From Pirellulaceae bacterium (GTDB lineage Bacteria > Planctomycetota > Planctomycetia > Pirellulales > Pirellulaceae): a DNA stretch of 64,000 bases. The stretch is from the NCBI GenBank assembly GCA_041751935.1, contig JBGSIA010000057.1:1-64000 (forward strand), read 5' to 3'. Positions 1 through 20,367 of this stretch are shown piece after piece (within the stretch, counting starts at the first letter, position 1; each line of letters opens with the position of its first letter). Below the pieces are notes generated by a model. The model made no database searches, had not been told where the DNA came from, and saw only the letters and a program-made list of their open reading frames with translations. The position numbers and the translations under genes are program-made.

Positions 1-506
1 CCGCAGCATTGCGATTGGAAGAATTCATGTGCTCCGATACGAGTTGCACATAACGTTTTTGCAGTCGCCGATCCATCGGCGGAAGTTTAAGTCCATCCAG
101 AACAGCCTAAACTATTTGGCGAGTTGTGTAGATACCAATGCTCTCCCAGAGAGAGGGGGAAAGTATGGATGCGAGAGACGCGGCGGCCAAGGGCATCCCA
201 TTTGTAGGACACATCCGCCGTGCTGTCGTTGTCGACGTCGACCGGCTCGCAATTCGCCAGCCGATCTTCGTCGTCGTAGGTTCGCGATTCACTCATGAGC
301 AGTATTATAGCTGCTGCCGGTCACCCGAAGCATTGTCAGGAGACGAACGAGGATCGAGCTGGGAATACGCGAGGGGCATGAGGAGCCTTGCCGCAAAAGA
401 TTTCGTGATTTTAATAGCGGAATCGAGGACAGTAGCCTTGTTAGCGGCACTGCGTTACACTCAAAGCATCGTATCCGGAACGACTCCTCAACCTGCGGTG
501 CAACTC

Positions 507-1610
507 ATGGGACTGTTCGACAAGCTGCGCGGCGAACTCAGCGACATCATCGAATGGATCGATGATTCCAAACATACGTTGGTTTGGCGTTTTCCCCGCT
601 ACAACAACGAAATCAAGAACGGGGCGCAATTAATCGTCCGCCCTGGACAGACGGCCGTTCTGGTTCACAACGGAAAAATGGCGGACGTCTATCCGCCAGG
701 CCACTATGAGTTAACGACTGAGAACATGCCGGTCATGACGACATTGGCTGGTTGGAAATATGGTTTTGCGAGTCCGTTCAAGGCGGAAGTGTATTTTGTT
801 AGCACACGCCAAATCACGGATCTGAAATGGGGCACGCCCAATCCGATCATGTTGCGAGATCCGGAATTCGGCCCGATTCGAATTCGTGCGTTCGGTACCT
901 ACTCGCTGAAAGCGGTTGATCCGAAAGCGTTGTTAACGGAGATTGTTGGCACCGACGGTGATTTCCAAAGCGACGAAATCACGGACTTGTTGCGCAGTAT
1001 GATCACTTCTGCGTTTTCGGATGTGATTGCCAGGCTGGATATTGCCGCCCTCGATCTCGCGTCGCAGTATCAACGCATCGCAACGGAAGTTCGCAAAGCT
1101 GTTGTCGAACAAATAGACGATGAATACGGATTGGATTGTCCGCAACTGATTGTTGTTAATATTTCGCTTCCCGAAGCTGTCGAGAAGGCACTGGACACTC
1201 GCACGAGCATGGGCGTGATTGGCGACATGGATCGGTTCCAGCAGTACCAAATGGGCCAAGCGATGACGGCGGCGGCTGAGAACCCCAGCGGCGGAGGAGC
1301 TGCCGAAGGAATGGGTTTGGGGATGGGCTTCGCAATGGCCAATCGCATGATGCCTCAAGTTGGAGTGCAACCTGGCGGCATGGCTCCGCCACCTCTACCG
1401 CCGACCAGCGTCTGGCATGTCACCGTCAACGGTGAAACTCGTGGTCCGTTCTCGCTGCAGCAAATGATTGCTGGGATATCCAGTGGTGAGGTACGCAGTG
1501 ACTCGCTCGTTTGGACTGCGGGAATGTCGGGTTGGACGGTCGCCACGCAAGTTCCGCAACTTGCCGCCTACTTCACCGCCTCGCCTCCACCGCCGCCTCC
1601 CGCAGCATGA
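507..1610 (+). CDS. SPFH/Band-7 family membrane-scaffold protein (Band_7_1, B. subtilis YdjI-like) with C-terminal DUF4339 (GYF-like) domain
   Basis: ATG at 507 opens with MGLFDKLRGELSD, the characteristic N-terminus of Band_7_1/COG4260 proteins. A Gly/Met-rich low-complexity linker follows, then a C-terminal 'VWHVTVNGETRGPFSLQQM...LVWTAGMSGW' DUF4339-type repeat. The ORF track extends upstream to 138 but that extension has no family-like sequence. The stop overlaps the next gene as ATGA. Confidence 0.75.
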   Translation: MGLFDKLRGELSDIIEWIDDSKHTLVWRFPRYNNEIKNGAQLIVRPGQTAVLVHNGKMADVYPPGHYELTTENMPVMTTLAGWKYGFASPFKAEVYFVSTRQITDLKWGTPNPIMLRDPEFGPIRIRAFGTYSLKAVDPKALLTEIVGTDGDFQSDEITDLLRSMITSAFSDVIARLDIAALDLASQYQRIATEVRKAVVEQIDDEYGLDCPQLIVVNISLPEAVEKALDTRTSMGVIGDMDRFQQYQMGQAMTAAAENPSGGGAAEGMGLGMGFAMANRMMPQVGVQPGGMAPPPLPPTSVWHVTVNGETRGPFSLQQMIAGISSGEVRSDSLVWTAGMSGWTVATQVPQLAAYFTASPPPPPPAA

Positions 1611-2002
1611 CCCGATCGCTCAGTCACTTCCCACAACAGTCCAACATCGAATTGGCTCCCGCTGGCGTCGAATGGGTGGTGGATGCTTTTCGATGTGATC
1701 CGGATCGCTTGCGTGACTTGAATCTTATTGTCTGCATTTGTCGCGACGTCGTCAGCGAACTCGGTTTGCGAATCGTCGGTGAGCCGCTAAAGCACGCATT
1801 CCCTGCGCCCGGCGGAGTGACCGCATTGTTCATGCTCAGTGAGTCGCACTTGGCATGCCACACTTATCCTGAGTACGCTCTGGCAACGTTCAATTTGTAC
1901 TGTTGTCGCGAGCGTCCGGCGTGGCCGTGGCAGGGAAAACTACTCGTTGCACTGGAGTCCGACGAAGTCTGTGTGCGTTCCATTCCAAGAGGCCGGTCGT
2001 GA
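1607..2002 (+). CDS. speH: S-adenosylmethionine decarboxylase proenzyme, small class 1A (SpeH-type)
   Basis: 131 aa carrying 'FMLSESHLACHTYPE', the pyruvoyl-forming Ser self-cleavage motif of class-1A AdoMetDC. ATG at 1607 overlaps the upstream stop as ATGA. Confidence 0.8.
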   Translation: MTRSLSHFPQQSNIELAPAGVEWVVDAFRCDPDRLRDLNLIVCICRDVVSELGLRIVGEPLKHAFPAPGGVTALFMLSESHLACHTYPEYALATFNLYCCRERPAWPWQGKLLVALESDEVCVRSIPRGRS

Positions 2003-3546
2003 AGCATCGAACGGCGAATTGTCCGGCTTGCGGCGGGCCGGTGGAGTTCAAAACAGGCTCGTCGCTGGTCACTGTTTGTGAGTTTTGTGATAGCGTCATT
2101 GCACGCGGTGACAAAAAGGTCGAAGACTATGGCAAGGTTGCCGACCTGGGCGAAACCAACTCCGGAATGCGACTTGGGTTGGAAGGCAAATTCAACCACA
2201 AGTCCTTTTTTGTTTCCGGACGTGTTCGTTACCAGCATCCCGCAGGAGGTGTTTGGGATGAATGGTACCTCGCGCTGCCAGGAGAGCGTTGGGGATGGCT
2301 CGCCGAGGCACAAGGAAACTTTTATTTGTTGTTTGAACGCAACCTTACAAGCCGTACGGAGTTGCCGGAATTCAATTCGCTCACGATTTCTTCGCCTGTT
2401 ACGCTCGGAAAAACCAAATTTTCCGTTCGCGAGAAAGGGATCGCGACGGGATTGTCCGCTGAGGGCGAGATTCCCTGGGCCTTTCGTCCAGGCTGTGAGC
2501 ACAAGTTCGTAGACCTGGAGAACGAGGAAGGAGTATTCGCGACGCTGGAGTACGGGGCTTCGCCTGCCGCGTTTGTCGGCAAGCAAGTAACGCTCGAGCA
2601 ACTTGGAATTGATACCAGCGATGATCATCCCGACAATGACTCATTGCCGGTTGCGGCGCTGCATTTAAATTGCCCCAAGTGTGGTGGATCGTTGATTCTG
2701 CGAGCCCCCGATCAAACGGAGCGTGTAACCTGTCGTAACTGCGATTCGCTGTTAGACGCTGCGGGAGGCAAACTGGCGTACTTTAGTACTTTGCGGCGTC
2801 AGAAAATCACACCGTTGATTCCGATAGGACGAGCAGGAAAAATTGCTGGCGTCGAGTACACCGTGATTGGCTTCATGGAACGATTTGCCACATACGAGGG
2901 AACGAAGTATCCGTGGACTGAATACTTGCTCTATAATCACAAGATTGGTTTCCGTTGGTTGGTTTGCAATCAGAGTCATTGGTCGTTCGTGGAACCGGTG
3001 AAGATCAGCGATACGCCGGCAATGGATCGAATCAGTTACGATGGTTCGTCGTTTCGCATCTACGATCGTGGCACCGCTTACGTCCGCTATGTTCTAGGCG
3101 AGTTTTATTGGCGCGTCAGCGAAGGTGATTACGTCGGAACGGCTGACTTCATTGCACCCCCGCGAATGCTGTCGTTTGAGTGGACAAAAACGGCGAAACT
3201 TGAAGAGATCAATGTATCCTTGGGAACGTACATGCAGCACGAGGAGATCGAGGCAGCGTTTGGCGTCAAGGGCCTTCCACGTTCTTGGGGTGTGGGTCCG
3301 ATTTCGCCTGCGCCAGCAGTAGGACCAGCGATTTACGTTGCTTGGATGGCGTTTTCTTTGGTGATGTTATTGATTCACGCAATGTATTACACCGGTGCAG
3401 CAACGACCGGTTCTGATGGTTGGTTATTGTTTTATGGGCTCGCGTTCCTTGCTGTTCCTCCGGTTGGGATAATGTTTTATCGTCACGGTTTCGAGGTTCA
3501 GCGGTGGAGCAACAGTGACTACAGTCCTTATGCGTCGAGCGAGTAA
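1999..3546 (+). CDS. Tandem [zinc-ribbon + DUF4178] x2 protein with C-terminal 2-TM anchor (YdjG/YdjH-like fusion)
   Basis: GTG at 1999 overlaps the speH stop as GTGA. Two repeats of C-x2-C...C-x2-C ribbons (NCPACGG..CEFCDS and NCPKCGG..CRNCDS) are each followed by a ~200-aa DUF4178-like beta-rich region with a W/Y-rich core. Two hydrophobic helices close the C-terminus. The alternative start at 1903 would overlap speH by 100 nt. Confidence 0.65.
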   Translation: MKHRTANCPACGGPVEFKTGSSLVTVCEFCDSVIARGDKKVEDYGKVADLGETNSGMRLGLEGKFNHKSFFVSGRVRYQHPAGGVWDEWYLALPGERWGWLAEAQGNFYLLFERNLTSRTELPEFNSLTISSPVTLGKTKFSVREKGIATGLSAEGEIPWAFRPGCEHKFVDLENEEGVFATLEYGASPAAFVGKQVTLEQLGIDTSDDHPDNDSLPVAALHLNCPKCGGSLILRAPDQTERVTCRNCDSLLDAAGGKLAYFSTLRRQKITPLIPIGRAGKIAGVEYTVIGFMERFATYEGTKYPWTEYLLYNHKIGFRWLVCNQSHWSFVEPVKISDTPAMDRISYDGSSFRIYDRGTAYVRYVLGEFYWRVSEGDYVGTADFIAPPRMLSFEWTKTAKLEEINVSLGTYMQHEEIEAAFGVKGLPRSWGVGPISPAPAVGPAIYVAWMAFSLVMLLIHAMYYTGAATTGSDGWLLFYGLAFLAVPPVGIMFYRHGFEVQRWSNSDYSPYASSE

Positions 3547-3552
3547 GATCCA

Positions 3553-3726
3553 ATGAAACGAACGTTGTTGATTACGTACTTGAGTTTCGGCGTTTGCGTT
3601 TGTGTCTGGTTTACGATCGCTGCGGCAAATGCGTGGCGCGCGCCAAACTTTGGTGTTTTGGACGGCTCGTCGTCGAGCGGTTCCTATGGACGTTCTTATG
3701 GTGGCTCCTGGGGAGGTGGGAAATAG
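3553..3726 (+). CDS. Small secreted Gly/Ser/Tyr-rich peptide (57 aa, signal peptide with predicted ~27-aa mature part)
   Basis: ATG at 3553 lies 6 nt after the upstream stop. The product is MKRTLLITYLSFGVCVCVWFTIAAANA|WRAPNFGVLDGSSSSGSYGRSYGGSWGGGK, with a stop at 3724-3726. The next gene starts 8 nt later. It is missing from the ORF track because it is shorter than 60 aa. Confidence 0.35.
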   Translation: MKRTLLITYLSFGVCVCVWFTIAAANAWRAPNFGVLDGSSSSGSYGRSYGGSWGGGK

Positions 3727-3734
3727 TGGTATCA

Positions 3735-4022
3735 ATGCAAACTGGATTTGAATCGTTACGAATGCTAGGTCAAGCGGCTCAGTTGGCGCCGGTGCGGGCA
3801 GAGAGCGGCATGCACCTGCTGGGTGAACACTTGTTGGCAGCGATTGTGTTTTCGATCGTCGGCATCATCGTGTTCTTCATCTGTCTTTTGATCATGGACA
3901 AGCTGACGCCGTTCTCGATCATTAAAGAGATCTTCGAGGAACACAACGAGGCTTTGGCGATCATTGTGGGTGCGATTGTGCTGGGAATTTCGGTCATTAT
4001 TGCCGCTGCGATATTGGGATAA
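3735..4022 (+). CDS. DUF350 (YjfL-like) small integral membrane protein
   Basis: ATG at 3735 gives [16 protein letters not shown].. followed by two to three TM helices. Size and pattern match E. coli YjfL-type DUF350 proteins. The 3594 start in the track adds a Cys/Trp-rich extension that overlaps the small-peptide ORF. Confidence 0.65.
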
Positions 4023-4033
4023 CCCCGTCGTTG

Positions 4034-5566
4034 ATGAATCGAGCACCGCTGTATCTGCTGTATTTAAATGTGTTGGTCATCGCGACCTGCGGGTTGATTT
4101 ACGAATTGCTGGCCGGAACGTTGGCGAGTTATTTGCTCGGCGATTCCGTCACTCAGTTTTCGCTGGTGATCGGTGTGTATTTGTCAGCTCTGGGCGTGGG
4201 CGCTTGGCTGTCGCAATACGTGCATACGAAAATCGCCCGTACTTTCATCGAAGTCGAATTAGCGCTCGCACTGGTCGGAGGAGCGTCCGCGCCGCTTCTG
4301 TTTGTCGTCTTTGCCTGGATTCAATGGTTTCAGCTCGCCTTGTTCGGGTTGGTGTTCATCATCGGGATCCTGGTGGGACTGGAGTTGCCGTTACTGATGC
4401 GGATTCTCAAAGAGCATCTCGATTTTGAAGATCTCGTATCTCGTGTATTGACGTTCGACTACATCGGAGCGTTATTGGCTTCGCTACTGTTTCCGATTTT
4501 TCTCATTCCGTATCTTGGATTGGTTCGGACTTCGCTGCTGTTTGGAATCCTCAACGCCCTGGTCGGTTTGTGGGGGACCTATCTCCTGCGGCCAATCTTG
4601 AGTGAACGTGGTCTGGGAGGTTTGCGTGGACGGGCCGTCTTGGTCGTGGGACTGTTGGTCGTGGGGCTAATCAAGGCCGATTCGCTAACCATGATTGCTG
4701 AAGAAACGATACTTGCGAATCCGATCGTTTTTGCCGAGCAAACGCCTTTCCAGCGGATCGTGATGACGCAAAATCGACGCGGTTTTCAGTTACACCTCAA
4801 TGGGCATCTACAATTCAATTCCGCTGACGAGTATCGCTATCACGAGGCGCTCGTTCATCCGCCGATGTCAGCCGTTGCACAGCCGCGTCACGTATTGGTG
4901 CTCGGTGGCGGCGATGGACTCGCCGTACGCGAGGTATTGAAGTACCCATCGGTCGAGTCCGTGACCCTTGTCGATATCGATCCAGCCATGACCCGGATTG
5001 CGAGCGAATTTCCACTCCTTGTTGAATTGAACGAGCGTTCGTTGCTGGACCCGCGAGTCCATGTCGTCAATCGCGATGCGTTCGTATGGATCAGCGAATC
5101 GAACCAGTCAGGACATCGATACGATGTGGCGATCATCGATTTTCCTGATCCCGGTAGCTACTCAGTTGGGAAGCTGTACACAACGCGTTTTTTTGGCTTG
5201 TTGCGTTCGCTGTTAACTGAATCATCGCGTGTTTCTATACAGTGTACGTCTCCGCTGGTTGCGCCGAATTCGTATTGGTGCATTATCAACACGATGCGAC
5301 GAACCGGATTTGATGTGCGTCCCTATTGTGCTGCTGTACCATCCTTTGGTGTCTGGGGATTTGCATTTGCAACGGTGGGTCCCGGTACCGGCGAACCGAT
5401 TGAGCTCGCCGAGTCCTTGAGCACGCTCAAATTTCTGACGCCGACGGTGATGCAGTCCTTGTTTGATCTGCCATCGGATGTGTATCCCCGGGAAACGGAA
5501 TTGAATCAACTCAACAATCAAGTGCTGGTCCGGTATTACGATACAGAGTGGAACGCGGGCGAATGA
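4034..5566 (+). CDS. speE: Polyamine aminopropyltransferase (spermidine synthase-like) fused to an N-terminal ~7-TM membrane domain
   Basis: The N-terminal ~230 aa form hydrophobic helices. The C-terminal domain carries the spermidine-synthase signature '[18 protein letters not shown]...[10 protein letters not shown]...[10 protein letters not shown]'. ATG at 4034 (TTG at 4031) lies 11 nt after the DUF350 stop. Confidence 0.85.
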
Positions 5567-7206
5567 GCGAGCCGACAGCGAATCTGTCTCGACGCGAGTT
5601 GTTGGGTCTGCTGATAGGGGCTCACGCTACAGCGTACGTCGGATGTTCTACCTCTTCGTTGCCAATCGAAGGTCAACTGCTCAGCCCCGAGTTCGTTGTT
5701 GGACATCGGATACGTGACGGATTCAAACCGATGATTCCTGCGGGCAATACCAAACAGCCTGAAGTCGTGATTGTCGGTGGCGGCATTGCGGGTCTGACAG
5801 CTGCCTGGCGTTTACTTCGTGGCGGAATCAATGATTTCGTGCTGTTGGAGATCGAAGCCGTTCCCGGTGGAACCGCTCGGGGCGGCCGCTTCGAACAGTT
5901 TGCTTTTCCTTGGGGAGCGCACTATGTTCCGACTCCGCTAAAAGAAAACGCTTTACTGGTCAACCTGTTAACGGAAATGAAGGTCGTCACCGCAACGAAC
6001 GAGCACGGGGAACCGATTGTTGCGGAACAGTATCTGTGTCGTGAACCGCACGAACGTGTATTTGCCGACGGCCAGTGGTTCGAGGGATTGTATCCGTTTG
6101 CGGGAGCTTCGCATGATGACTTACAGCAACTGCACTCCTTTCGCCGTGTCATCGACGAGTGGATATCGCGGCGAGACGAGCTGGGTCGGCGAATGTTTGC
6201 AATCCCGATTTCCACGGCTTCCGATTGTGACGAGGTGACAGCACTCGACAAGATTTCCATGAGCGATTGGATGCATGAGAATGGCTGGACGTCACCGCGA
6301 TTGCGATGGTTAGTCGACTATTCATGTCGCGATGATTATGGATTGACGATTGAACAAACCAGTGCCTGGGCGGGGCTCTTTTATTTTGGGTCAAGAACAC
6401 AACACCCCAGCGATCCGTCACCAGAAATGATCACGTTTCCCGAAGGAAATGCCGCAATTGTTAAGTACCTTAGCGACTGTATCGGTGACCGAATCCGCTA
6501 CTCACATGCCGTGTATGATATTCAAGTCGGTACCGATACTCAGCGTCCGATTGTCAGCGTGTTGGATTATAACCGCGATGGACTAGTTATGTATAAGCCA
6601 AATCGCGTTATTTTTGCCGCACCACAGTTTGTCGCTCCCTATTTGATTCGTGATTTTGAGGCACACAGTCACCGCAGTACCCAGTCGTTTCGCTACGGTT
6701 CATGGTTAGTTGCCAATGTGCATCTGCGAGATCGACCGACTGAAAAAAGTATGCCGATGTGTTGGGACAATGTAATTTACGGCAGCAAATCGCTTGGGTA
6801 TGTGACGTCGACGCATCAAACGGGACTTGATCACGGCGCGACGGTGATCACTTGGTATTATCCCTTGACCGACGATGGAAAGGTATCGCGTCAACAATTG
6901 CTGTCGCTAAGCTGGAACGATTGGTCAGAAATGATCGTCGCTGATTTGCGCTACGCTCATCCGGACATCGAACCGCTCATCAGCACGATTGACATCATGA
7001 GATGGGGGCACGCGATGATCCAACCGAGACCGGGATTCGTGTGGAGCGATGCTCGGCGCGACGCGTCCAAACCGTTTGGTCGAATCCATTTTGCGAACAC
7101 CGACTTGAGTGGCATTGCGTTGTTGGAAGAAGCCTTTGCTCACGGCGTGCGAGCTGCGGACGAGATCTTGGGTGCTGGTCATCCGCCGGATAATACGGTG
7201 GCATAA
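5563..7206 (+). CDS. FAD-dependent amine oxidase-family oxidoreductase with a Tat-like signal
   Basis: ATG at 5563 overlaps the speE stop as ATGA. The N-terminus '[20 protein letters not shown]' looks like a Tat signal with a lipobox-like Cys. The dinucleotide fold is '[17 protein letters not shown]'. The C-terminal '[19 protein letters not shown]' resembles flavin amine oxidases. Confidence 0.7.
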
Positions 7207-7262
7207 TAAGAACCTATCCGAAAACCAAAGAAGCACCCGCAGCCGGCGCCGTCGGCTCACGG
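7207..7262 (+). terminator. Nested stem-loop after the amine oxidase gene (putative operon terminator or structured element)
   Basis: The outer inverted repeat CCTATCCGAAAACC...GGCTTTTGGATAGG encloses the inner AGCCGGC-gcc-GTCGGCT hairpin, which has one G-U pair. There is no clean T-tract. Confidence 0.4.
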
Positions 7263-7363
7263 CTTTTGGATAGGTACTAAGTGGTGGCGACTTTCATTCG
7301 CCAATACCTAAAATGTTGACTAAAAGTCGACGCTACATTAAGACTCCGTCACTTATTGATCCC

Positions 7364-8437
7364 ACGATGCTTTGTGCAGTGTCCAAGACGTCAGCAATGG
7401 AAACAAAACACAGCCTGCCGTGGTTGTTCTCTCCTTTTGTCGATGTGCTAACCTTTCTTGGTAGTGCATTGATAGCGTTGGGGCTGTTGGCAATCGGTGC
7501 ACCGCTTGGTTGGTTGCACAGCGAGACGCCTCGCTGGGCCTGGGTGGTCGCGATCCTGATGATCGACGTCGCTCATGTTTATGCGACAGGCTTTCGCGTT
7601 TATTTTGATCGAGAAGAGTTGAAACGGCGTCCATGGTTGTATGGTCTGACGCCAGTGTTGGCCTATCTTTTTGCCTGGGCAGTGTACTCCGAGAGCGTCG
7701 AGCTATTCTGGCGTCTGTTGGCCTATTTGGCGCTGTTTCATTTTGTTCGCCAGCAGTATGGATGGGTCTCTTTGTATCGATCACGTGGTCGCGAGACATC
7801 TAGGATTGGTTGGTGGATTGATGCCAGCGCCATCTATTTATCGATGCTTTACCCGATTGTTTATTGGCACTGCAATATGCCACGCCGTTTTTGGTGGTTT
7901 CGTCAGGGTGACTTTGCCTCGCTCTCCATTGATTTTTCGAGATACTTATTGCCAGTTTATGCGGTCGCCTTGGCCACCTATTTTGTTCGGTCGGTCTATC
8001 GAACCTTTTGGAAGCGAACGCCGAATCCTGGGAAAGACATGGTCGTATTCACCACGGCGGTTTGTTGGTATGTCGGCGTCGTTGCATTCGATTCGGATTA
8101 TGCATTCACGGTGACTAACGTTATCATCCATGGTGTCCCATACATGGTCCTCGTTTACTGGTATCGATTCGGACGCGAGCAGCGAGAGGAGCGAAGCTCC
8201 CTCCGGCACCTTGCTTCGTTCCTGGGCATTATTTGGATGCTGGCGTATGCGGAAGAACTGCTCTGGGATAGTGGCGTGTGGCGAGAGCGATCATGGTTGT
8301 TTGGCGGCTGGCAACTTGATGTGTGGGACACGATTCTCGTTTCGTTTTTGGCCGTCCCGCAAATTACGCACTATGTTCTGGACGGGTTTATCTGGCGTCG
8401 AAGAACGAGCACACGACTTTCGGAAATGATAGACTAG
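7364..8437 (+). CDS. Polytopic integral membrane protein of unknown function
   Basis: At least 8 hydrophobic helices and conserved His/Trp-rich loops (HVYATGFRVYFD, FHFVRQQYGW, IIHGVPYMVLVYWY). The start is uncertain among 7313, 7364 and 7394. Confidence 0.45.
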   Translation, partial: TMLCAVSKTSAMETKHSLPWLFSPFVDVLTFLGSALIALGLLAIGAPLGWLHSETPRWAWVVAILMIDVAHVYATGFRVYFDREELKRRPWLYGLTPVLAYLFAWAVYSESVELFWRLLAYLALFHFVRQQYGWVSLYRSRGRETSRIGWWIDASAIYLSMLYPIVYWHCNMPRRFWWFRQGDFASLSIDFSRYLLPVYAVALATYFVRSVYRTFWKRTPNPGKDMVVFTTAVCWYVGVVAFDSDYAFTVTNVIIHGVPYMVLVYWYRFGREQREERSSLRHLASFLGIIWMLAYAEELLWDSGVWRERSWLFGGWQLDVWDTILVSFLAVPQITHYVLDGFIWRRRTSTRLSEMID

Positions 8438-8478
8438 GTTTCCCACGATCAACCGTCCGTTTGTACTTCGGAGTTTTC

Positions 8479-9531
8479 ATGATGATGTTAGGTCCCTTCG
8501 CGCAGAACCGATCCATCACAAGACGCGATGCACTGCGTAGCGGTCTGGCTACCGCAGCCACCGCCGTAGCGATGTCAACGGCAGGTAAAGCGTATTCCCA
8601 GTCGCCCGCAAGTGACCCAATCGCGGATGACCGACGTGCTTCGACGAAACGCTACGGCATGAAGAAATCGATTAATCTGTGGGCGTTCCCGTATCCCGAG
8701 CGAATGACGCTCCAAGAGTGTTTAGTGCTTGCTAAACGAGCGGGTTTTGATGCCATCGAACTTAACTACGATCTAGACAATGACTTGTCGCCCAAGGCAA
8801 CTAACAAGGAGCTTTCTGCGATTCGGCAAATGGCCGATAAAATCGGAATTGAAATTAGTGGTTTATGCAGCTTTCTGTTTTGGCCCTACCCGCTATCAAG
8901 CAACGATCCCGCGAAACGCTCTCGAGGTATTGAGCTTGCCGGGATGATGGCTGATGCAGCGCACCAGATGGGTGTCAAGAACCTTCTTGTAGTTCCTGGA
9001 GCGATTCACATCCCATGGCGCGATGACCATGAACCGGTCCCGAACGATGTTTGTGAGCGGCGAGCGAAAGAGGCCGTTGGAAAGTTGGTGGGCAAGGCGG
9101 AGAAGTCGGGTGTTTCGCTAAATATGGAAAATATTTTCTTCAATGGTTTTTTGATGACGCCAATGGAGATGTGCCAATTTGTTGACAGTTTCGGTAGTGA
9201 GGCCGTGCAAGTGCATTACGACACCGGCAATATCTCGATGTTCCAATTTGCTGAGCATTGGATACCAGTGATGGACAAGCGAATCAAGAATATCCATTTC
9301 AAAGAGTTCACTAAGAAAGGTACCGATTATTCGCTGGAGACGTTTCGACCATTATTAGACGGTACAACGAATTGGCCAGCGGTAATGCAGGCATTAGAAG
9401 AAGTTGGTTACGATGGTTACGTAACGTTCGAGTATTTTCACCCGTATCTTCATTACCCGGAAGCCTTGATCTACCAAACTTCAGATTCGTTGGACCGCAT
9501 GCTCGGACGTTACACGGAACCGGTGGGTTAG
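8479..9531 (+). CDS. Sugar phosphate isomerase/epimerase (xylose-isomerase-like TIM barrel), Tat-secreted
   Basis: ATG at 8479 gives MMMLGPFAQNRSITRRDALRSGLATAATAVA, a twin-arginine signal. The AP-endonuclease-2/xylose-isomerase-like barrel shows in 'GFDAIELNYD...NLLVVPG...VHYDTGN...FEYF'. Confidence 0.7.
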   Translation: MMMLGPFAQNRSITRRDALRSGLATAATAVAMSTAGKAYSQSPASDPIADDRRASTKRYGMKKSINLWAFPYPERMTLQECLVLAKRAGFDAIELNYDLDNDLSPKATNKELSAIRQMADKIGIEISGLCSFLFWPYPLSSNDPAKRSRGIELAGMMADAAHQMGVKNLLVVPGAIHIPWRDDHEPVPNDVCERRAKEAVGKLVGKAEKSGVSLNMENIFFNGFLMTPMEMCQFVDSFGSEAVQVHYDTGNISMFQFAEHWIPVMDKRIKNIHFKEFTKKGTDYSLETFRPLLDGTTNWPAVMQALEEVGYDGYVTFEYFHPYLHYPEALIYQTSDSLDRMLGRYTEPVG

Positions 9532-9656
9532 GACCTAGCGGACAGTATGTGTTGGATTAGAAGGCGGCCGAGGCTTCTAAGAACGAGGGAGCATCATCTG
9601 ACGTAGTGGATCTTGTTGTGTGTTTTTATTGTAGGACAGCGAGGGAAGTTTGAGTG

Positions 9657-11045
9657 ATGCCTCATCAGGATGAAGTCGTGTTCGTCGACACCGGTGGTGC
9701 GATGCCTCCGATGTGGCCTCGCCGCGTGATGTTTTTTGCTAACTTGTTAGCAATCTTTTTTGGCAACGACGAGCAGACAGCAGCGCTGAGAGCAGTAGTT
9801 GGTGAGATCGACTCTTACAGCGCGAGATTGATTCCCATCTTGAATTTGCTGTTTCGGGGCGACGACAATCTTCTATTTTTGGAGCGTGAGCCAGACCCGA
9901 CGCTTTGCCGTTACTTGCATGATGATTTGGGGCTTTCGCTACCGAGGATGCATGTTTTATCCCACAATGATTATCTCGATCTCGGAAAGCAACTGATTCG
10001 TGATCATGACTTTGATCCGTCGCCGCTACTTGGCCGCGTGATCTCTCACAATCCAGGCTGGGTCGATGGCTATGTTACCGACGACTCTTTGGCACGAATT
10101 GCCACTAGATTGGGATGTCCCACGGTGACCACTACGACAGCAAGCTTCAATGGGAATAATAAGTTACGGTTGCACGAGTTTCTTGTCAGTCAAGGTTTGC
10201 CGACCTTTGATACGTGCTTGGCTGAATCAGGTTCCGATATTTTTCGCTGTGCCGACGAGTTGTCTAATTTGGGTTACCAGTCGGCTGTGATCCGAGCCCA
10301 GGTGGGTGCGTCCGGTATTGGGATGTTGCGATTGCGAGAACTTCGATCGCCTGGCGAGTTTCCCAGTGTTCCGCCATATTTTTTTCACGATGGGCCGTGT
10401 ATGGTGCAAGGTTGGTTAGCACCAAGTAACCAAGACATTTTGGAAATCTACAGTCCCAGCACACAATTGTTTCTGGACGAGAATCATGTTTATGCGTTCG
10501 ATATGACGGAACAAATCCTGAGTTCCGAGAATGTTCATCAAGGCAATGAATCGCCTCCGCCGTACATAAAACAGTTTTCTGGATTGTATGAAGAAACCAT
10601 ACGTCAAGCCGCGATCGTTACACGTTGGCTTCATGGCACCGGATATCGAGGCACGGCGAGTATCGATTGGTTGGTTGTGCGGCGCAATAATCCTGATCGC
10701 TTCGATGTTTACGTTTGTGAAATCAATGCTCGTGTAACTGGGGCAACGTACCCATCCCTGTTGGCTAAGCATTTTCACGATAAAGGAGCGTGGCTACTAA
10801 GAAATTTGAGATTGCGGGTGCCTGTCACGACGACATCGTTGTTGCAAATGTTCGAACGACCGGGACACTTATTCCATCCCGACCGGCGTGCGGGGATTCT
10901 GCCTATGAACTTGAATTTCGGAGTTGACGACTTGGTACACAAGGGCCAGTTTGTCTGTATCGGCGAGTCGACGGCGGATTGCCATCGGTTCCTGAGTCTG
11001 GCCGAACGTGATTTGCCGATTCAATGGGATAGCGACCGTGATTGA
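9657..11045 (+). CDS. ATP-grasp ligase with N-terminal pre-ATP-grasp domain (PGM1-like peptide/amino-acid ligase family)
   Basis: The ATP-grasp core motifs are '[14 protein letters not shown]...[14 protein letters not shown]...[15 protein letters not shown]'. ATG at 9657 has a GAGGGAAG SD-like sequence 9 nt upstream. Confidence 0.6.
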
Positions 11046-11046
11046 G

Positions 11047-12174
11047 ATGAAAGATATGCAAGAACTACAGTCACGACTGGTTTCGTTGACGCGTGATTTA
11101 ATTCTTATTCCCAGTACTGAAAACCGGCCGCGAGAAAGGGATCGCTGTTTCGAATTTTTACGTCATCACCTCGATACTGTCGCAGGATTGAAAGTCGAGT
11201 ATTTTACCTCGCGCGAGCACCGATCGATGGTGGTTCGGCCCGAGAACGATGACGCTCCTGCGGTGCTGCTTTGCGGGCATCTTGACGTGATCGAGCATTC
11301 CGATACCGACTGCTACCACTCGCGAATCGACGAGGGTCGGATCGTTGGTCCAGGTAGCGGCGATATGAAAGGCCAGATCTCGATCATGGTCGAGTTGCTG
11401 CGATCGCTCCACGGGTCGCACCCGGGAATCTCGCTTGGCGCCGCTTTCACAAGCGACGAAGAACGCGGCGGTGCTGACGGAGTCCGTTATTTGCTTGATG
11501 ACGCCGGGTTACGATGTGGGTTGGCAATCGTTCCCGACGGCGGTTCGTTGAATGAGGTCACAATCGAAGAGAAAGGGGTGCTTCATGTGCGTGTTAGGCA
11601 ATCGGGGCGCGAAGCTCATGGGGCGCGACCGTGGCTCGGTGAAAATGCTGTCGAGAAATTGCTGCATAGGTTAACGCGATTGCAGCAACACTTTCTTCAG
11701 TATTGGCCGACCCTTCCGATTCAAGAGCAAGTCAACCATTGGTTTCCCACTTGTTCGATTACGATCTGTGACACAGAGAACAGAACGGTCAATCGAATCC
11801 CTTGTCAAGCGATGGCGATCATGGATGTTCGCTTTCCGCCGCCGCACTCCGTGGAGAGTATGGTTGCAGAGATTTCTGATGTTTTAGGATCTGGGTGCGA
11901 TATCGACGTGTTGATGAGTGCCGAACCAACTCATTTGGATCCTGATCCATTATTCTGCCAGGCGACTGAGCAGATCACCGCGGAACCGGTGAGGATGGTA
12001 CGAGCTTCGGGAGGAAGCGACAGTCGTTTTTTTCGGACGTATGGCATCCCCGTCAATCTCTCGCGTCCATTGGTGGGTAATTTGCATGCCATCGACGAAT
12101 GGATCGACATTCAATCGATGGTGACGTATTACCGAATCTGTGAACGCTACATCATCCAGCGAAGCAGTAGGTGA
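11047..12174 (+). CDS. M20-family metallohydrolase (ArgE/DapE-like deacylase/peptidase)
   Basis: '[11 protein letters not shown]' holds the metal-binding His/Asp, and '[10 protein letters not shown]' matches the M20 catalytic region. ATG sits 1 nt after the ATP-grasp stop. Confidence 0.75.
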
Positions 12175-13287: not shown

Positions 13288-13474
13288 CGTGGGCGGGCTT
13301 TCGGTTTTCGTTCGTGGCGACGTTGGTAAAGGTTTCTCATCGACAGTAAGACGGACTGTAGAATATACCGCATTTTGCAGCAAAATAGCCAGCGTTTCAA
13401 ACACGGACAGGGTTTGGTTATACTCTACGATCGAGAAACGTCTGACATAGTGATAGCCGCGAGCTTGATTGCTA

Positions 13475-15760
13475 ATGAACATTTTTACGATGCCCGCCCG
13501 AATCCTTTTTGTGCTGCTGTTGGCGGCTTTTTCGCCTCAGGTTTCGTCTCTTGCGAGTGCCGTCGAGGTGTTTATCGAAGCAGAGAGCTTTGATGACCCT
13601 GGTGGCTGGCAACTTGATACACAATTCATCCAGCAGATGGGTTCGCCCTACTTGTTGGCTCATGGACTTGGCAAGCCGGTAGAAGATGCCGTCAAAAAAG
13701 TTGAGGTTCCCGTAGCAGCGGAGTACCGAGTTTGGGTTCGCACCAAGGATTGGGTCGCGCGGTGGAAAGCATCGCCAGCGCCGGGTCAATTTCAGTTAAT
13801 CCTTGGGGGCAAGAAGGTTGCCGCAACATTTGGAACCGAGGGCGAAGAGTGGTCGTGGCACAACGGTGGAACCATCACGCTTGCTGCGGGTGAAATGGAA
13901 GTGCGATTGCACGACTTAACTGGGTTTGACGGGCGTTGCGATTGTATTTATCTCACAACGGAATTGGGCAATGAACCACCACCAGCGCGGGATGTGCTGT
14001 CGCAGTGGCGGCGAGATCAGCTCGGACTCACGAACGAGGCTATCGAGAAGGGACCGTATGACTTAGTCGTCGTGGGTGGCGGTTATGCTGGGATGGGATC
14101 GGCGATTTCGGCAGCGCGTATGGGATGTCGTGTTGCTTTGATTCAAGATCGTCCGGTGCTCGGTGGAAACGGTTCAAGTGAAGTTCGCGTGTGGGCCATG
14201 GGGCTCGTTCGTCGTGGCAAGTTTCCTCGAGTTGGCGAGATCATTGAAGAGTTTGCCGATCGTGCAACGAAGTCGCCGGGCACCGAAGAAGAGTTCGGCG
14301 ATGATTTGAAAGAAAAAGTGGTTCGCGCCGAGCCAAACATTGACCTAATGCTGAACCATCATGCGTATGCCGTGGAGATGGATGGCGATCATATTTTGGC
14401 TGTCAAGGCATTCGATACTCGTAGCGGTGCCGACCTGAAAATCGTTGGAGATCGATTTGCCGATTGCACGGGTCATGCTTGGATTGGTCAGTGGGCCAAT
14501 GCTGAATACGACATGACTCCCGAGGGCCGCATGGGCATGTCGAACATGTGGCGGTGGGACGAAACCGATTCGCCGACACAGTTCCCTGAAACACCTTGGG
14601 CTCTCGACTTAACGATGGAAGATTTTCCTTACCCACGAGACAACCATGGACAGTGGTTCTGGGAGAGTGGTTTCGATATTCATGCAGTGGATGATGCCGA
14701 AGCGATACGTGATTGGAACTTGCGGGCTGTATTTGGTGCGTTCAACGCCATGAAGAATCGCGACGGTGCCAACGAACACAAGAACGCGATTTTAAGTTGG
14801 GTTGCCTTTGTTGGTGGTCCGCGCGAGAGCCGACGGTTGCTCGGTGATGTCGTCTTATCGCAAGACGATGTGGTCGATAAACGAGAATTTCCTGACGGTT
14901 GTGTGCCGAGTACTTGGTCCATTGACCTGCATTACCCTAAAGACCAGTACGCAATTAAGTTCTCGGACAATCCTTTTATTAGCATTGCAGTTCACGATCG
15001 TCGCGTCGACCGCATGTACGGATACCCGGTGCCCTACCGATGTTTTTACAGTCGCAATATCGATAACCTGTTCATGGCCGGTCGTTGTATTAGTGTTACA
15101 CACGAAGCGCTGGGCACCGTGCGCGTCATGAAGACGTGTGGCATGATGGGTGAAGTGGTTGGTAAAGCAGCGTCAATCTGTACCGCCGAGAATTGCACTC
15201 CTCGCGAAGTTTACGAGAAACACTTGAATGACTTGTTGGAGTTGTTGAAGCTTCCTGGCGTGGCTCGTCGAAGCACACCTACGGCTGATATCGTTGTTCC
15301 CGAGAATGTACAACCGGCTGCTGGACCCTATGGGCCACCTGACGGAGTTGACCCGGCATCGATAGAAGGCGTCGTTGTTGACGATCTAGACGCAAAACTG
15401 CAGGGCAAGTGGACCGAGGGTACGGGACTGAAGGGCTATGTCGGTTATGGTTATCGGTACGCATCGCCGAACTCTGACGCGTCGTGTCGCTTCACGGCAA
15501 AGGTTGATAAGCCAGGCCGATACCGCGTCGAACTGTATTGCCAGCCCCACGAGAATCGCGGCAAGAATGTTCCCGTTGTGGTTGATACCGGCGTGATGCG
15601 GACCGAGCATCGCATCAACCAACGCGATCTTGAGGAACCAACGATCGAGCTGCAAACGGTAAATTTGGTGGAGGGTCAGGAAATCAGTGTCGTGATTCGA
15701 ACCGAAGACGCTGGTGGTTTCGTCCACGCGGATGCTATGAGGCTTGTGCCCGTTAAATGA
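13475..15760 (+). CDS. Secreted FAD-dependent oxidoreductase (PF12831-like) with an N-terminal ~190-aa beta-sandwich (CBM-like) domain
   Basis: A signal peptide is followed by 'DLVVVGGGYAGMGSAISAARMGCRVALIQDRPVLGGNGSSE', a GxGxxG FAD fold. The C-terminal beta-rich region runs about 150 aa. Confidence 0.7.
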   Translation: MNIFTMPARILFVLLLAAFSPQVSSLASAVEVFIEAESFDDPGGWQLDTQFIQQMGSPYLLAHGLGKPVEDAVKKVEVPVAAEYRVWVRTKDWVARWKASPAPGQFQLILGGKKVAATFGTEGEEWSWHNGGTITLAAGEMEVRLHDLTGFDGRCDCIYLTTELGNEPPPARDVLSQWRRDQLGLTNEAIEKGPYDLVVVGGGYAGMGSAISAARMGCRVALIQDRPVLGGNGSSEVRVWAMGLVRRGKFPRVGEIIEEFADRATKSPGTEEEFGDDLKEKVVRAEPNIDLMLNHHAYAVEMDGDHILAVKAFDTRSGADLKIVGDRFADCTGHAWIGQWANAEYDMTPEGRMGMSNMWRWDETDSPTQFPETPWALDLTMEDFPYPRDNHGQWFWESGFDIHAVDDAEAIRDWNLRAVFGAFNAMKNRDGANEHKNAILSWVAFVGGPRESRRLLGDVVLSQDDVVDKREFPDGCVPSTWSIDLHYPKDQYAIKFSDNPFISIAVHDRRVDRMYGYPVPYRCFYSRNIDNLFMAGRCISVTHEALGTVRVMKTCGMMGEVVGKAASICTAENCTPREVYEKHLNDLLELLKLPGVARRSTPTADIVVPENVQPAAGPYGPPDGVDPASIEGVVVDDLDAKLQGKWTEGTGLKGYVGYGYRYASPNSDASCRFTAKVDKPGRYRVELYCQPHENRGKNVPVVVDTGVMRTEHRINQRDLEEPTIELQTVNLVEGQEISVVIRTEDAGGFVHADAMRLVPVK

Positions 15761-17400
15761 CGGACATTGCGGGAATACTCGTACATACGCTTCGAGTGGT
15801 GTTGGTCGGGTTGTTGCTCTTGCTGTTGCATCGTCCGCCAGAAGCAAACGTCACTGCCGACCAACCGCCCACAATCGACAAAATTCGTGAAGTCATCTCC
15901 GCGGCGCAGGCCCTTGTGCAACCCCCGGACTCGCTCCGCATATGGGATGTGCTTGATCACAACCAAAAAACGGTCGGTCGCGTGGCACGCACGCTTCCCC
16001 AAGCTGCTGCGGTTCGCGGTTATCGCGGTCCAACCGAAGCATTGTTGGTGCTCGATGATCTCAATCGAATCAAGCAGGTTTCGATCCTCGGCAGTCGAGA
16101 CACGATCGAGCATGTCGAAATCGTACGTCACGATGCACGCTTTCTTGCACAGTTCCAGGGTTGGCAGCTTGGTAGTACAGCGACAGCGACAAAGATCGAT
16201 GGTGTCTCCGGCGCCACGTTAACGAGTTTGGCGTTTGCGAGTGGAATCCTTCAGCGACTCGGTGTCGCTAATGGGTCACTCGTTTTTCCCGACGACATCA
16301 GCGCACAGGAAGCCAGCGAGTTGGCGGATTTTCAGCGTGAAGGTTCTACTCCGGTTGTTTATCGAACAGGGATCTACGACGACGGTACGATCGGTTATCA
16401 GGGACCGACGGAAATGCTCATTGCCGTGTCCCGCGAAGGGAACCTATTAGCCGCTAAAATCCGCAAGTCTTTCGATAACGAAGCGTATGTCGACTATGTG
16501 CGAACGGACAAATATTTTTGGAAGACGTTCATCGGAAAACCACTCAATGAGTTGGCGGAATCTGCGTCCGGTGTGGAAGGCGTCTCGGGCGCAACAATGA
16601 CGAGCCAAGCAATTGCCGAAACTCTCGCAGTGGCGGCTGGAAAAATCCAGCTAACGCGAAACGAGCAAGCTGTGCCAAAGCCATCGTTACTTGCAAGGTT
16701 CACATCAAGCGTCAATTTTTCGTGGGCAGAAATCGCCACGGTGGTGATACTGCTGTTGGCACTCGGGTACCACCGATTCGCACGGCAACACAAGCATTGG
16801 GTACGACGAATATGGTTGATATCGACGATAGTTGTGCTGGGCGTTTGGGCGGGTAATTTGCTTTCGCTTTCGCTTATTGCCGGATGGTCACAAAGTGGAG
16901 TGGGTTGGCAAATCGCACCGGGGCTGACGATTTTAGTGATCGCAAGTCTGTTGGTGCCGCCGCTAACAAAGGCAAATCCTTATTGCAGTCACATGTGTCC
17001 TCACGGAGCGATCCAGCAATTGATTCGGCCTAAGAAGAGCCAGCGTCGCCACGTGCATGTTAGCGGTATAGTCCAACGCGTTTTGAAGTTTATCCCGGCG
17101 GTGACCTTGGCGATCGCTTATGCGATGTTACTCTTCCGGCCTGACACCGAATTAGCATCGTGGGAACCATTTCACGCCTACTTGTATCCAATCGCAGGAG
17201 TTGTGACGGTTGTGATCGCTATCGCCAGCTTGATCGTTGCCTCAATGGTCCCGATGGGGTACTGCCGTTTCGGATGTCCCACGGGAAGTCTTCTCGATTA
17301 TCTCCGCCGCAGCGCAGCGAGCCGGCGCGTCGGCATGGCTGACGCGCTCGTTCTGGCATTAGCGGTGTTGGCTGCAAGCGTTCGGTTTGGATTTTCCTGA
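15757..17400 (+). CDS. NosR/NirI-like membrane electron-transfer protein: 2x FMN-bind domains plus a polyferredoxin-like TM domain
   Basis: Two 'GVSGATLTS'/'GVSGATMTS' motifs are FMN_bind covalent flavinylation sites. The C-terminal multi-TM region carries 'CSHMCPHGAIQQ' and 'CRFGCPTG', resembling NapH/NosR CxxxCP motifs. ATG overlaps the upstream stop as ATGA. Confidence 0.65.
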   Translation: MTDIAGILVHTLRVVLVGLLLLLLHRPPEANVTADQPPTIDKIREVISAAQALVQPPDSLRIWDVLDHNQKTVGRVARTLPQAAAVRGYRGPTEALLVLDDLNRIKQVSILGSRDTIEHVEIVRHDARFLAQFQGWQLGSTATATKIDGVSGATLTSLAFASGILQRLGVANGSLVFPDDISAQEASELADFQREGSTPVVYRTGIYDDGTIGYQGPTEMLIAVSREGNLLAAKIRKSFDNEAYVDYVRTDKYFWKTFIGKPLNELAESASGVEGVSGATMTSQAIAETLAVAAGKIQLTRNEQAVPKPSLLARFTSSVNFSWAEIATVVILLLALGYHRFARQHKHWVRRIWLISTIVVLGVWAGNLLSLSLIAGWSQSGVGWQIAPGLTILVIASLLVPPLTKANPYCSHMCPHGAIQQLIRPKKSQRRHVHVSGIVQRVLKFIPAVTLAIAYAMLLFRPDTELASWEPFHAYLYPIAGVVTVVIAIASLIVASMVPMGYCRFGCPTGSLLDYLRRSAASRRVGMADALVLALAVLAASVRFGFS

Positions 17401-20323: not shown

Positions 20324-20367
20324 CCGCGACAGCTTACACCGAAGCCGGATCACTCAGGAGCCCTTAT

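Follow-up and report, generated by a model that had tools for sequence, protein, structure and literature searches.

When an aminopropyltransferase is anchored in the membrane and encoded among envelope scaffold proteins, which molecule accepts its aminopropyl group? The question is raised by a seven-gene operon at positions 507-7206 of a 64,000-nucleotide stretch of DNA from a Pirellulaceae bacterium (contig JBGSIA010000057.1, assembly GCA_041751935.1), called the window here. The operon is very probably a member of the known cluster type that links an S-adenosylmethionine (AdoMet) decarboxylase (AdoMetDC), a fusion of major facilitator superfamily (MFS) and spermidine synthase-like (SpdSyn-like) domains, and DUF350, and this copy is its Band_7_1-GYF_2 variant; the cluster has been described, but its function is unsolved. 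Several findings here appear to be new: an unannotated family of small proteins whose tails end in lysine, the pairing of that family with the transmembrane (TM) aminopropyltransferase, hereafter TM-SpeE, the similar but GG-terminated tails of Escherichia coli DUF1190 proteins, the prediction that the oxidase is a Tat lipoprotein, and the make-up of the TM domain as half of an MFS fold plus one more helix, from which a periplasmic catalytic domain is predicted. We tentatively propose that the MFS-SpdSyn-like enzymes have their missing substrate in the 57-residue tail protein of this operon and its more than 3000 relatives. The lysine would be aminopropylated, maybe repeatedly, outside the cytoplasm, with the half-MFS domain delivering decarboxylated AdoMet and the oxidase acting as an eraser, a reading that we consider possible but far from assured.

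The Operon and Its Genes

Genes were defined from a listing of open reading frames (ORFs) together with direct reading of the sequence, and window coordinates are used throughout. An earlier note on this DNA, made from the sequence alone, had placed seven same-strand genes at 507-7206. These are indeed co-directional and tightly packed, and an eighth gene follows them:

507-1610, + strand: cytoplasmic SPFH scaffold protein (g1), Band_7_1 with a C-terminal GYF_2 domain between proline-rich stretches
1607-2002, + strand: AdoMetDC homolog (g2), pyruvoyl enzyme of class 1b (SpeH-type); ATGA overlap with g1
1999-3546, + strand: tandem protein (g3) of two zinc ribbon plus DUF4178 units, then two TM helices; GTGA overlap with g2
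3553-3726, + strand: 57-residue tail protein (g4), after a gap of 6 nt
3735-4022, + strand: DUF350 (YjfL-family) two-TM membrane protein (g5)
4034-5566, + strand: membrane aminopropyltransferase, TM-SpeE (g6), after a gap of 11 nt, or 8 nt if it starts at the TTG at 4031
5563-7206, + strand: flavin amine oxidoreductase with a twin-arginine translocation (Tat) signal (g7); ATGA overlap with g6
7248-7263, + strand: terminator-like hairpin between g7 and g8, followed by TTTTGG (consensus scan and direct reading, a pattern match only)
7397-8437, + strand: polytopic, all-helical membrane protein (g8), in an ORF that is open from 7313

Three junctions are 4-nt start/stop overlaps, at the places first read, and all other gaps within the seven-gene unit are 11 nt or less; the DUF350 gene has an alternative GTG start at 3726 that overlaps the tail gene stop by 1 nt. 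The count of seven genes stands, but the tail protein, which has no Pfam match, had been counted without a description and g8 had been missed. All the domains predicted at that time were found by Pfam, including Band_7_1, GYF_2 (the former DUF4339), DUF4178, DUF350, Spermine_synth, AdoMet_dc, and Amino_oxidase. The picture of a scaffold part juxtaposed to a polyamine part had to be abandoned: the AdoMetDC gene is the second gene, between the SPFH and DUF4178 genes, so the scaffold and polyamine genes are interleaved.

Judging from its sequence pattern, the hairpin at 7248-7263 may be the end of the seven-gene transcript in this genome, in which case g8 is perhaps transcribed separately here. 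A consensus scan of the window gave no convincing promoter, promoter-like sites being fewer than in shuffled sequences, and no Rfam family was matched in 1-9000 at E values of 0.1 or less.

Conservation of the Gene Neighborhood

The TM-SpeE family was represented by 1178 members of 50%-identity clusters at E ≤1e-30. The closest relatives of the window protein are Pirellulaceae proteins that are 65-81% identical to it (Roseimaritima, Novipirellula, Rubripirellula, and Stieleria). One genome per species was scanned with a diverse alignment, which gave 80 loci from Acidobacteriota, Myxococcota, Bacteroidota, Planctomycetota, Beta- and Gammaproteobacteria, and Oligoflexia, and a second set comprised 80 metagenome loci. 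Neighborhood profiles were built from the window proteins, iterated, and run on six-frame ORFs; component counts were taken over those of the 81 genome loci that had enough flanking sequence (n = 58 or 57).

Roseimaritima ulvae (CP042914.1) carries the same seven genes in the same order, followed directly by a gene for a 357-residue membrane protein that is 71% identical to the g8 ORF at 7397-8437. The order that recurs, with the variable members in parentheses, is (Band_7_1)-(AdoMetDC)-DUF4178 (two units)-small ORF-DUF350-TM-SpeE-oxidase-(g8), and it was seen in most of the 160 loci, in at least five phyla. The gene immediately before TM-SpeE encodes DUF350 at 47 of 58 loci; DUF4178 is found in 45/58, AdoMetDC in 34/58, and Band_7_1, as the gene directly upstream of the cluster, in 15/58. 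GYF is present in four of the 58 (three Planctomycetota and one opposite-strand, perhaps spurious ORF in an acidobacterial locus). On the other side, an amine oxidase gene comes after TM-SpeE at 45 of 57 loci, and g8 after the oxidase at 21/57 (about 37%). The metagenome set repeats this pattern, and an independent JGI contig, reached via the small protein, shows matching gene context. All-against-all clustering of the flanking ORFs at the 80 genome loci yielded only kinases and sensor proteins as further recurrent neighbors, each at 12 loci or fewer, and neither PspA nor CesT was among them.

The core of the system is thus a Lys-terminated tail protein, DUF350, the half-MFS-anchored aminopropyltransferase of the PRK03612 family, and DUF4178; usual or occasional additions are a Tat-exported flavin amine oxidase, AdoMetDC, g8, and a scaffold of SPFH or PspA type. 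The linkage that the earlier note had proposed holds across phyla and is not peculiar to this genome. The recurrence of one gene order across five or more phyla goes far beyond chance, and a fortuitous adjacency is excluded. The contrary view, that the genes form several independent transcription units without a common function, could appeal to the lack of a convincing promoter in the window, to the hairpin that may set g8 apart, and to the absence of AdoMetDC, SPFH, and g8 each from many homologous loci. It has against it the 4-nt overlaps and short gaps described above, the fusion of the tail to DUF4178 at some loci, and the occurrence of both DUF4178 units in one gene or in two, depending on the locus. 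Cross-phylum synteny effectively refutes it, and we give it next to no credence.

A Lysine-Terminated Tail Protein beside TM-SpeE

The tail protein, which matches no Pfam or NCBIfam family, starts with a TM/signal-anchor helix; the tail that comes after it is rich in Gly, Ser, Tyr, and Arg and ends ...SYGGSWGGGK-COOH. At almost every locus a small ORF lies between DUF4178 and DUF350, encoding a positive N-terminus and a single TM helix, followed by a "GW" motif and an Arg/Gly/Tyr/His/Ser-rich tail. The small ORFs recovered there have a C-terminal lysine in 42 of 50 cases, 37 of them as GGK. When a profile of the tail was searched against a collection of 5.8 billion proteins, 3297 clusters were returned, all named "hypothetical" and without a Pfam domain, and the 120 best matches all end in GGK. 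Other lineages keep the lysine in a different setting: Bacteroidota tails end ...RFYHK, and those of some Proteobacteria ...YHK.

The tail is also found on other proteins. Comamonadaceae, and proteobacterial clusters with a divergent arrangement, have a DUF4178 protein that continues at its C-terminus through a single TM helix into a tail ending ...SSGGSHK or ...SSGGGHK, or else the tail is encoded by an adjoining small ORF; such DUF4178-tail fusions were found in Comamonadaceae and in a metagenome-assembled genome of Moraxellaceae (loci L044, 9095-9499; L055, 9053-9469; L077, 1355-1765; L062, 7499-9190). Shewanella-like operons, which carry a distant clade of TM-SpeE, have a protein of 226-255 residues upstream of a DUF350 protein of about 290 residues, with a lipobox in three of the four inspected, and these proteins end ...GGFGK, ...GRGFGK, ...SRGFGK, or ...YSRGK. 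At related Shewanella-like loci a 77-residue protein ending ...GGGPGSGK adjoins TM-SpeE. Most of the Shewanella-like operons have no oxidase gene; their candidate PspA- and CesT-like genes were recognized by position and by the look of the sequence only.

Among the 134 loci with enough upstream sequence, 97 have, no more than 1.6 kb before TM-SpeE, a + strand ORF with a low-complexity tail that ends in [GH]K; of 17,055 other ORFs, 24 are of this kind (0.14%). Relaxed or both-strand criteria added 14 more loci with a Lys-terminated tail. The terminal lysine is kept in three architectures, namely, the small TM protein, the DUF4178 fusion, and the 226-255-residue proteins. Since it is kept in all three, and in operons that lack the oxidase, the lysine tracks TM-SpeE and DUF350 and not the oxidase. 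The C-terminal lysine is a hallmark of the TM-SpeE/DUF350 systems. The tail is extracytoplasmic on the lipoproteins, and in the fusions it lies on the opposite side of the membrane from the zinc ribbon and DUF4178. No mention of the C-terminal lysine was found in the papers searched, and in the searched text of Ravi et al. 2024 neither the invariant lysine nor g8 was found.

The Membrane Aminopropyltransferase

TM-SpeE matches Pfam Spermine_synth at 2e-33 and scores above the cut-off of NCBIfam NF002956/PRK03612 (632.5 versus 472 bits), residues 7-508 aligning to positions 20-520 of a 522-position model. It falls below the speE equivalog TIGR00417 (128.7 versus 249.55 bits) and below the NCBIfam model "MFS_SpdSyn" NF037959 (35 bits against a cut-off of 40). 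The pair formed with AdoMetDC differs from the canonical speH/speE pathway: both proteins are below the equivalog thresholds, and the transferase has seven TM helices and is not a soluble SpeE. The motifs YQ, DE..YHE, GGGDG, D.D, DA, and DxxDP are all present in it and are 91-100% conserved in 81 homologs, and its catalytic domain is nearest to broad-specificity polyamine aminopropyltransferases (7xif, 1uir/3anx).

Both TM prediction and the structural model agree with the seven-TM anchor proposed from the sequence. Six of its helices make up a half-MFS domain, a hydrophobic seventh helix follows, and the remainder is a catalytic domain of spermidine-synthase fold. Over the same 81 homologs the half-MFS domain is strongly conserved and acid-lined. 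Helix 7, modeled as a helix of 20 residues, is hydrophobic in every homolog without being conserved in sequence. Topology was judged from the mean number of Lys plus Arg per loop in the 81 sequences, which is 1.1 for the N-terminus, 0.0 for loop 1-2, 2.9 for loop 2-3, 0.05 for loop 3-4, 3.7 for loop 4-5, and 1.3 for loop 6-7. These charges fit an N-in orientation, and the linker after helix 7 is acidic. As both ends of the half-MFS domain would then be cytoplasmic, the catalytic domain would be periplasmic if helix 7 spans the membrane. We lean, with some reserve, toward this arrangement. Fusions of SpdSyn to the Tat oxidase, which would have fixed the topology, were sought among the longest family representatives and none was found.

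AdoMetDC and the Oxidase

The AdoMetDC homolog matches Pfam AdoMet_dc at 3e-22 and scores 63.4 bits against the SpeH equivalog TIGR03330, whose cut-off of 75.65 it does not reach. It aligns to the Thermotoga maritima AdoMetDC (1tlu/1vr7, 4e-11) and keeps the Glu-Ser processing site, the His, and the Cys ("LSESHLACHTYPE...LYCC"), to which we assign roles on the assumption that they act as in the T. maritima structure. From these motifs, it would supply decarboxylated AdoMet in the cytoplasm. Neofunctionalized arginine or ornithine decarboxylases are known among the relatives of AdoMetDC (Li et al. 2023). A role of this kind, or as a decarboxylase of the terminal lysine, was considered and rejected as a leading idea; the protein is cytoplasmic, has residues of AdoMetDC type, and has a partner that uses decarboxylated AdoMet.

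The oxidase matches Pfam Amino_oxidase (PF01593) at 6e-13, with 49.3 bits versus a gathering threshold of 19.8, residues 75-536 covering profile positions 1-443. It has a GxGxxG FAD-binding N-terminus and also matches NAD_binding_8. Solved structures of polyamine, monoamine, and L-amino acid oxidases are matched only over about 60 N-terminal FAD-binding residues, at E 1e-3 or weaker, and the best NCBIfam match is a partial one to PigB. Because only the FAD-binding end resembles solved amine oxidases, the substrate cannot be read from the sequence. The Tat signal noticed earlier is present in the window protein together with a lipobox-like Cys, and an RRx-hydrophobic (twin-arginine) motif occurs in 49 of 56 homologs. 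As judged by eye from the N-termini, the Tat motif is followed by a lipobox-like Cys in most of them. The oxidase is predicted from these signals to be a periplasmic Tat lipoprotein.

Scaffold Proteins, DUF350, and the Eighth Protein

The SPFH protein matches Pfam Band_7_1 at 1.8e-100 and GYF_2 at 1.1e-18, and its GYF part also matches the GYF domain of GltJ/AglX (PDB 7z3c, 1e-5). No TM segment is predicted in it. Within the system it is a variable accessory. In the tandem protein, DUF4178 is matched in two stretches (2e-35), zinc ribbons are matched at residues 7-22 and 223-253, and residues 441-459 and 475-493 form TM segments; a cytoplasmic location is predicted for the soluble part. At other loci the two zinc ribbon plus DUF4178 units are separate, adjacent genes. 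In a search of PDB sequences the second zinc ribbon (residues 223-256) was weakly similar to LysW (3wwl, E 0.044), a match too weak to interpret, and one homolog (locus L085, 6897-8918) carries a faint precomputed Pfam match to "Zn_ribbon_LysW".

The DUF350 protein has two TM segments and covers one repeat of the Pfam profile (1.2e-11). Short DUF350 proteins such as this one (also at loci L036, L044, L051, L077, and others) stop right after TM helix 2 with a conserved ...AAAI(H/L)G end, and a loop motif DKLTP...EI.E..N is conserved in them. The eighth protein, g8, matches no Pfam or NCBIfam family and no structure in the PDB. From its place in the conserved neighborhood it is probably the eighth member of the system, and its invariant His, Asp, Glu, and Arg residues suggest an enzyme or a transporter.

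Relation to Known Systems

Thousands of class 1b AdoMetDC genes are reported to occur together with DUF350 and an MFS-SpdSyn-like fusion; activity is reported for the decarboxylases, and spermidine is said to be absent. The fusion reportedly does not complement an E. coli speE mutant and would have an acceptor other than putrescine, with which the sub-threshold speE score of the window protein agrees as an indirect hint. This linkage and the idea of "aminopropylation of other substrates" are attributed in Ravi et al. 2024 to Li et al. 2019 (Li, Kurihara, Kim, Liang, and Michael, Biochem J 476:2579). The operon has features of that cluster in its class 1b AdoMetDC with a self-processing Ser, in the DUF350 gene of the same operon, and in a fusion whose N-terminal part is a membrane domain of MFS fold and whose other part is SpdSyn-like. 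It is unlike the cluster in that its transferase matches NF002956 and not "MFS_SpdSyn" NF037959.

Operons described in Ravi et al. 2024 (mSystems 9:e00847-23) combine a CesT/Tir-PspA dyad, a 7TM-spermine synthase, DUF350, the Ctha_1186 lipoprotein with its low-complexity tail, and DUF4178, and the variants with a Band-7 protein carry AdoMetDC and a polyamine oxidase. The present operon shares with these phage-shock-protein operons the 7TM-spermine synthase, DUF350, and DUF4178 in conserved order, an anchored or secreted low-complexity protein just upstream of DUF350 (here the tail protein), and a scaffold of the Band-7 superfamily, AdoMetDC, and an amine oxidase. Shewanella-like metagenome loci of that kind were recovered, and their lipoproteins also end in GK. 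The tail protein has the same position as the Ctha_1186 lipoprotein and a similar low-complexity tail ending in GK, but it has 57 residues and a TM anchor. Unlike in the published operons, Pfam found no PspA or CesT domain in the seven products, in g8, or in the two ORFs downstream of g8; the scaffold there is Band-7 with two TM helices and SHOCT, while here it is Band_7_1 with GYF_2, and there is no ATP-grasp ligase within this operon. The combination had been described as uncharacterized. That is right in that no biochemical function is known for it, but its linkages had been published (Li et al. 2019, via the citation in Ravi et al. 2024; Ravi et al. 2024).

The analogy to the Bacillus subtilis ydjGHI genes holds for the Band_7_1 part: as in pspA-ydjGHI (Scholz et al. 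2021, PMC8581546), a Band_7_1-type SPFH protein stands beside zinc-ribbon membrane-associated proteins. It does not hold for DUF4178, which had been taken for a separate gene of that operon. YdjG consists of two zinc ribbons, an NTF2-like domain, and a TM helix, YdjH is a TPM domain protein, and PspA is encoded in the operon (Ravi et al. 2024), so DUF4178 is not part of ydjGHI. Pfam found no TPM, NTF2-like, or PspA match in the cluster studied here, where the comparable protein is zinc ribbon plus DUF4178.

Another parallel is offered by E. coli, in which YjfL (DUF350) is followed by YjfM (DUF1190) and then YjfC, and in which tolC is followed by the paralogs YgiB and YgiC. The earlier identification of DUF350 with the YjfL domain is correct, and yjfL lies two genes upstream of yjfC, with yjfM in between. 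YjfC and YgiC are named "peptide--spermidine ligase" in RefSeq and, as Pederick et al. 2023 is cited, are ATP-grasp peptide-spermidine ligases. The two systems have in common a DUF350 membrane protein (YjfL and g5), an anchored periplasmic tail rich in Gly, Ser, Arg, and Tyr (...RGGYGRSSSARGHWGG in YjfM, ...SGSYGRSYGGSWGGGK in g4), and an enzyme for attaching a group of polyamine type to a substrate that is peptide-like. They differ in that the E. coli enzyme is a cytoplasmic ATP-grasp ligase acting on a carboxylate and not an aminopropyltransferase. PspA (YjfJ), DUF2170, and DUF2491 of the yjfIJKLMC cluster are also missing here, DUF350 being the only common member. The C-termini of YjfM (...SRGGYGRSSSARGHWGG; yjfM at L083, 7388-8026) and YgiB (...GTSSRSMGG; ygiB at L084, 2245-2916) both end in Gly-Gly, and may be the physiological substrates of YjfC and YgiC. 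E. coli DUF1190 tails thus end in GG and those of the g4 family in GGK. A wider look for DUF1190 C-termini in a plasmid collection returned only Escherichia and Salmonella, and the tail protein gave no match to the DUF1190 profile.

Alkylation of the lysine epsilon-amine has precedents in hypusine, formed by deoxyhypusine synthase on eIF5A, and in the lysines of diatom silaffins that are modified with long-chain polyamines. In both cases an aminoalkyl group is placed on a protein lysine, and the silaffin peptides are rich in Ser, Gly, Tyr, and Lys as are the tails of g4 type. There is no sequence relationship to either, and these systems are eukaryotic or archaeal and not membrane-coupled.

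A Proposed Mechanism and Its Alternatives

In the mechanism that we propose, the cytoplasmic AdoMetDC would make decarboxylated AdoMet, as its sequence motifs indicate. The half-MFS domain of TM-SpeE, probably dimeric, would hand this donor across the inner membrane to the enzyme's own periplasmic catalytic domain, which would place one or more aminopropyl groups on the epsilon-amine of the lysine that ends the tail protein. The product would be a tethered, spermidine-like cationic tag that the periplasmic lipoprotein oxidase could remove or remodel. DUF4178, DUF350, and the SPFH-GYF scaffold might organize the complex or read its state. Taken as a whole, this vectorial aminopropylation of a tail lysine is a plausible scheme to which we would give a little less than even credit.

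The lead on the acceptor comes from the termini: a ligase that activates carboxylates is paired with a Gly terminus, and a transferase that alkylates amines with a Lys terminus. The contrast between GG and GK is a lead and not proof, and several points weigh against the proposed reading. The contrast was drawn from two E. coli DUF1190 paralogs only. The analogy also has a topology problem, the E. coli ligase being cytoplasmic and the DUF1190 tail predicted to be periplasmic. The resemblance between the g4 and DUF1190 tails is compositional, and modification of the tail lysine is a hypothesis. About 17% of TM-SpeE loci have no nearby tail gene, most of these being "orphans" without DUF350 or DUF4178. 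We know of no MFS transporter for decarboxylated AdoMet. Helix 7 has just 13-17 uncharged residues in many homologs, and the catalytic domain could therefore stay in the cytoplasm, which would put a periplasmic tail out of its reach. Finally, the second Asp of DxPDP, which anchors the distal amine of the diamine in canonical enzymes, is invariant in the 81 homologs, and for this reason a polyamine-like acceptor fits at least as well as a peptidyl lysine.

The last two points lead to the alternative of a free polyamine. The SpdSyn domain would then be cytoplasmic and aminopropylate a di- or polyamine in solution; its product would leave through the half-MFS domain and be broken down or converted by the oxidase in the periplasm, and the tail protein, DUF350, DUF4178, and SPFH would serve as scaffolds or sensors. 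Besides the short helix 7, this explanation can draw on the intact motifs, including both DxPDP Asp residues that bind diamines in canonical enzymes, on the broad specificity of the nearest solved aminopropyltransferases, on an MFS fold with buried acidic residues that would suit the export of a cationic amine, and on the membership of the oxidase in the flavin amine oxidase superfamily; PA4773-4775 of Pseudomonas aeruginosa are cited as a precedent for surface polyamines. It does not explain the near-universal Lys-terminated tail gene beside TM-SpeE, nor a helix 7 that is hydrophobic yet variable in sequence, and both the transferase and the decarboxylase are below the speE and speH equivalog cut-offs. 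The reported absence of spermidine from organisms with this fusion, and its reported failure to complement an E. coli speE mutant, also speak against it. We think it rather unlikely. The earlier description of the operon as a membrane-localized polyamine synthesis and turnover machine, which presupposes a free polyamine acceptor, was overstated in view of the sub-threshold scores and the reported absence of spermidine, though the motifs are intact.

The acceptor might instead be an amine of the envelope other than a protein, such as the head-group of phosphatidylethanolamine or another aminolipid or an amine of the peptidoglycan stem peptide, with the tail lysine serving, by a covalent or ionic bond, to tether the inner membrane to peptidoglycan in the manner of Lpp. 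Braun's lipoprotein Lpp ends ...KYRK, and several of the tails end ...YHK or ...YGGK. The terminal lysine of Lpp is linked to peptidoglycan (PMC12681736). Fusion of the catalytic domain to a membrane domain whose conserved polar intramembrane residues could bind a lipid head-group would fit such an acceptor, as would the prediction that all components but AdoMetDC, DUF4178, and SPFH are membrane-bound or periplasmic, and the association with SPFH and PspA points to membrane homeostasis (Ravi et al. 2024). Opposed to this, no L,D-transpeptidase or lipid-modifying gene is among the recurrent neighbors at the 80 genome loci, and the tail lysine co-varies with the aminopropyltransferase, DUF1190 tails beside ATP-grasp ligases being without it. 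To our knowledge no aminopropylated lipid or peptidoglycan has been reported. We therefore hold a non-protein acceptor to be improbable.

Significance and Other Features of the Window

The cluster type is present in thousands of bacterial genomes, mycobacteria being among the pathogens that carry the MFS-SpdSyn-like cluster, and gene context ties it to the PspA and SPFH membrane-stress systems. An invariant lysine on a tiny co-encoded protein is a specific, testable candidate for the acceptor that has been missing. If aminopropylation of the tail lysine is true, it would add to the known protein modifications and show decarboxylated AdoMet in use outside the cytoplasm for the first time, and it would hint at what YjfC and YgiC act on in E. 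coli. Together with the GG tails of DUF1190, it would then point to a general bacterial tagging of the C-termini of envelope proteins with polyamine-like groups, organized by DUF350 and read by DUF4178, PspA, or SPFH. If it is false, the operon stays a well-conserved member of a described cluster of unknown function.

Several other features were recorded in the window. An ATP-grasp protein with a weak match to a pre-ATP-grasp domain overlaps the start of an M20-family peptidase (9654-12174, + strand) and is probably unrelated to the operon; its gene, at 9654-11045, was considered as a member of the system and rejected, since the R. ulvae cluster has no such neighbor. At the edge of the window, a short ORF (87-296, - strand), divergent from the operon, encodes "YKWDALGRRVS", which is like YD/RHS repeats, and may be a fragment. 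The gene at 13469-15760 (+ strand) encodes a large FAD_oxidored protein that carries Golvesin_C at its C-terminus, and the end of this gene is overlapped by that of an FMN_bind/4Fe-4S protein (15757-17400). At 19229-21330 a ThiF-family gene (- strand) lies beside a gene (+ strand) for a truncated, 320-residue paralog of class II tRNA synthetases of Asp/Lys/Asn type, whose size and family recall EpmA/GenX, the modifier of the EF-P lysine.

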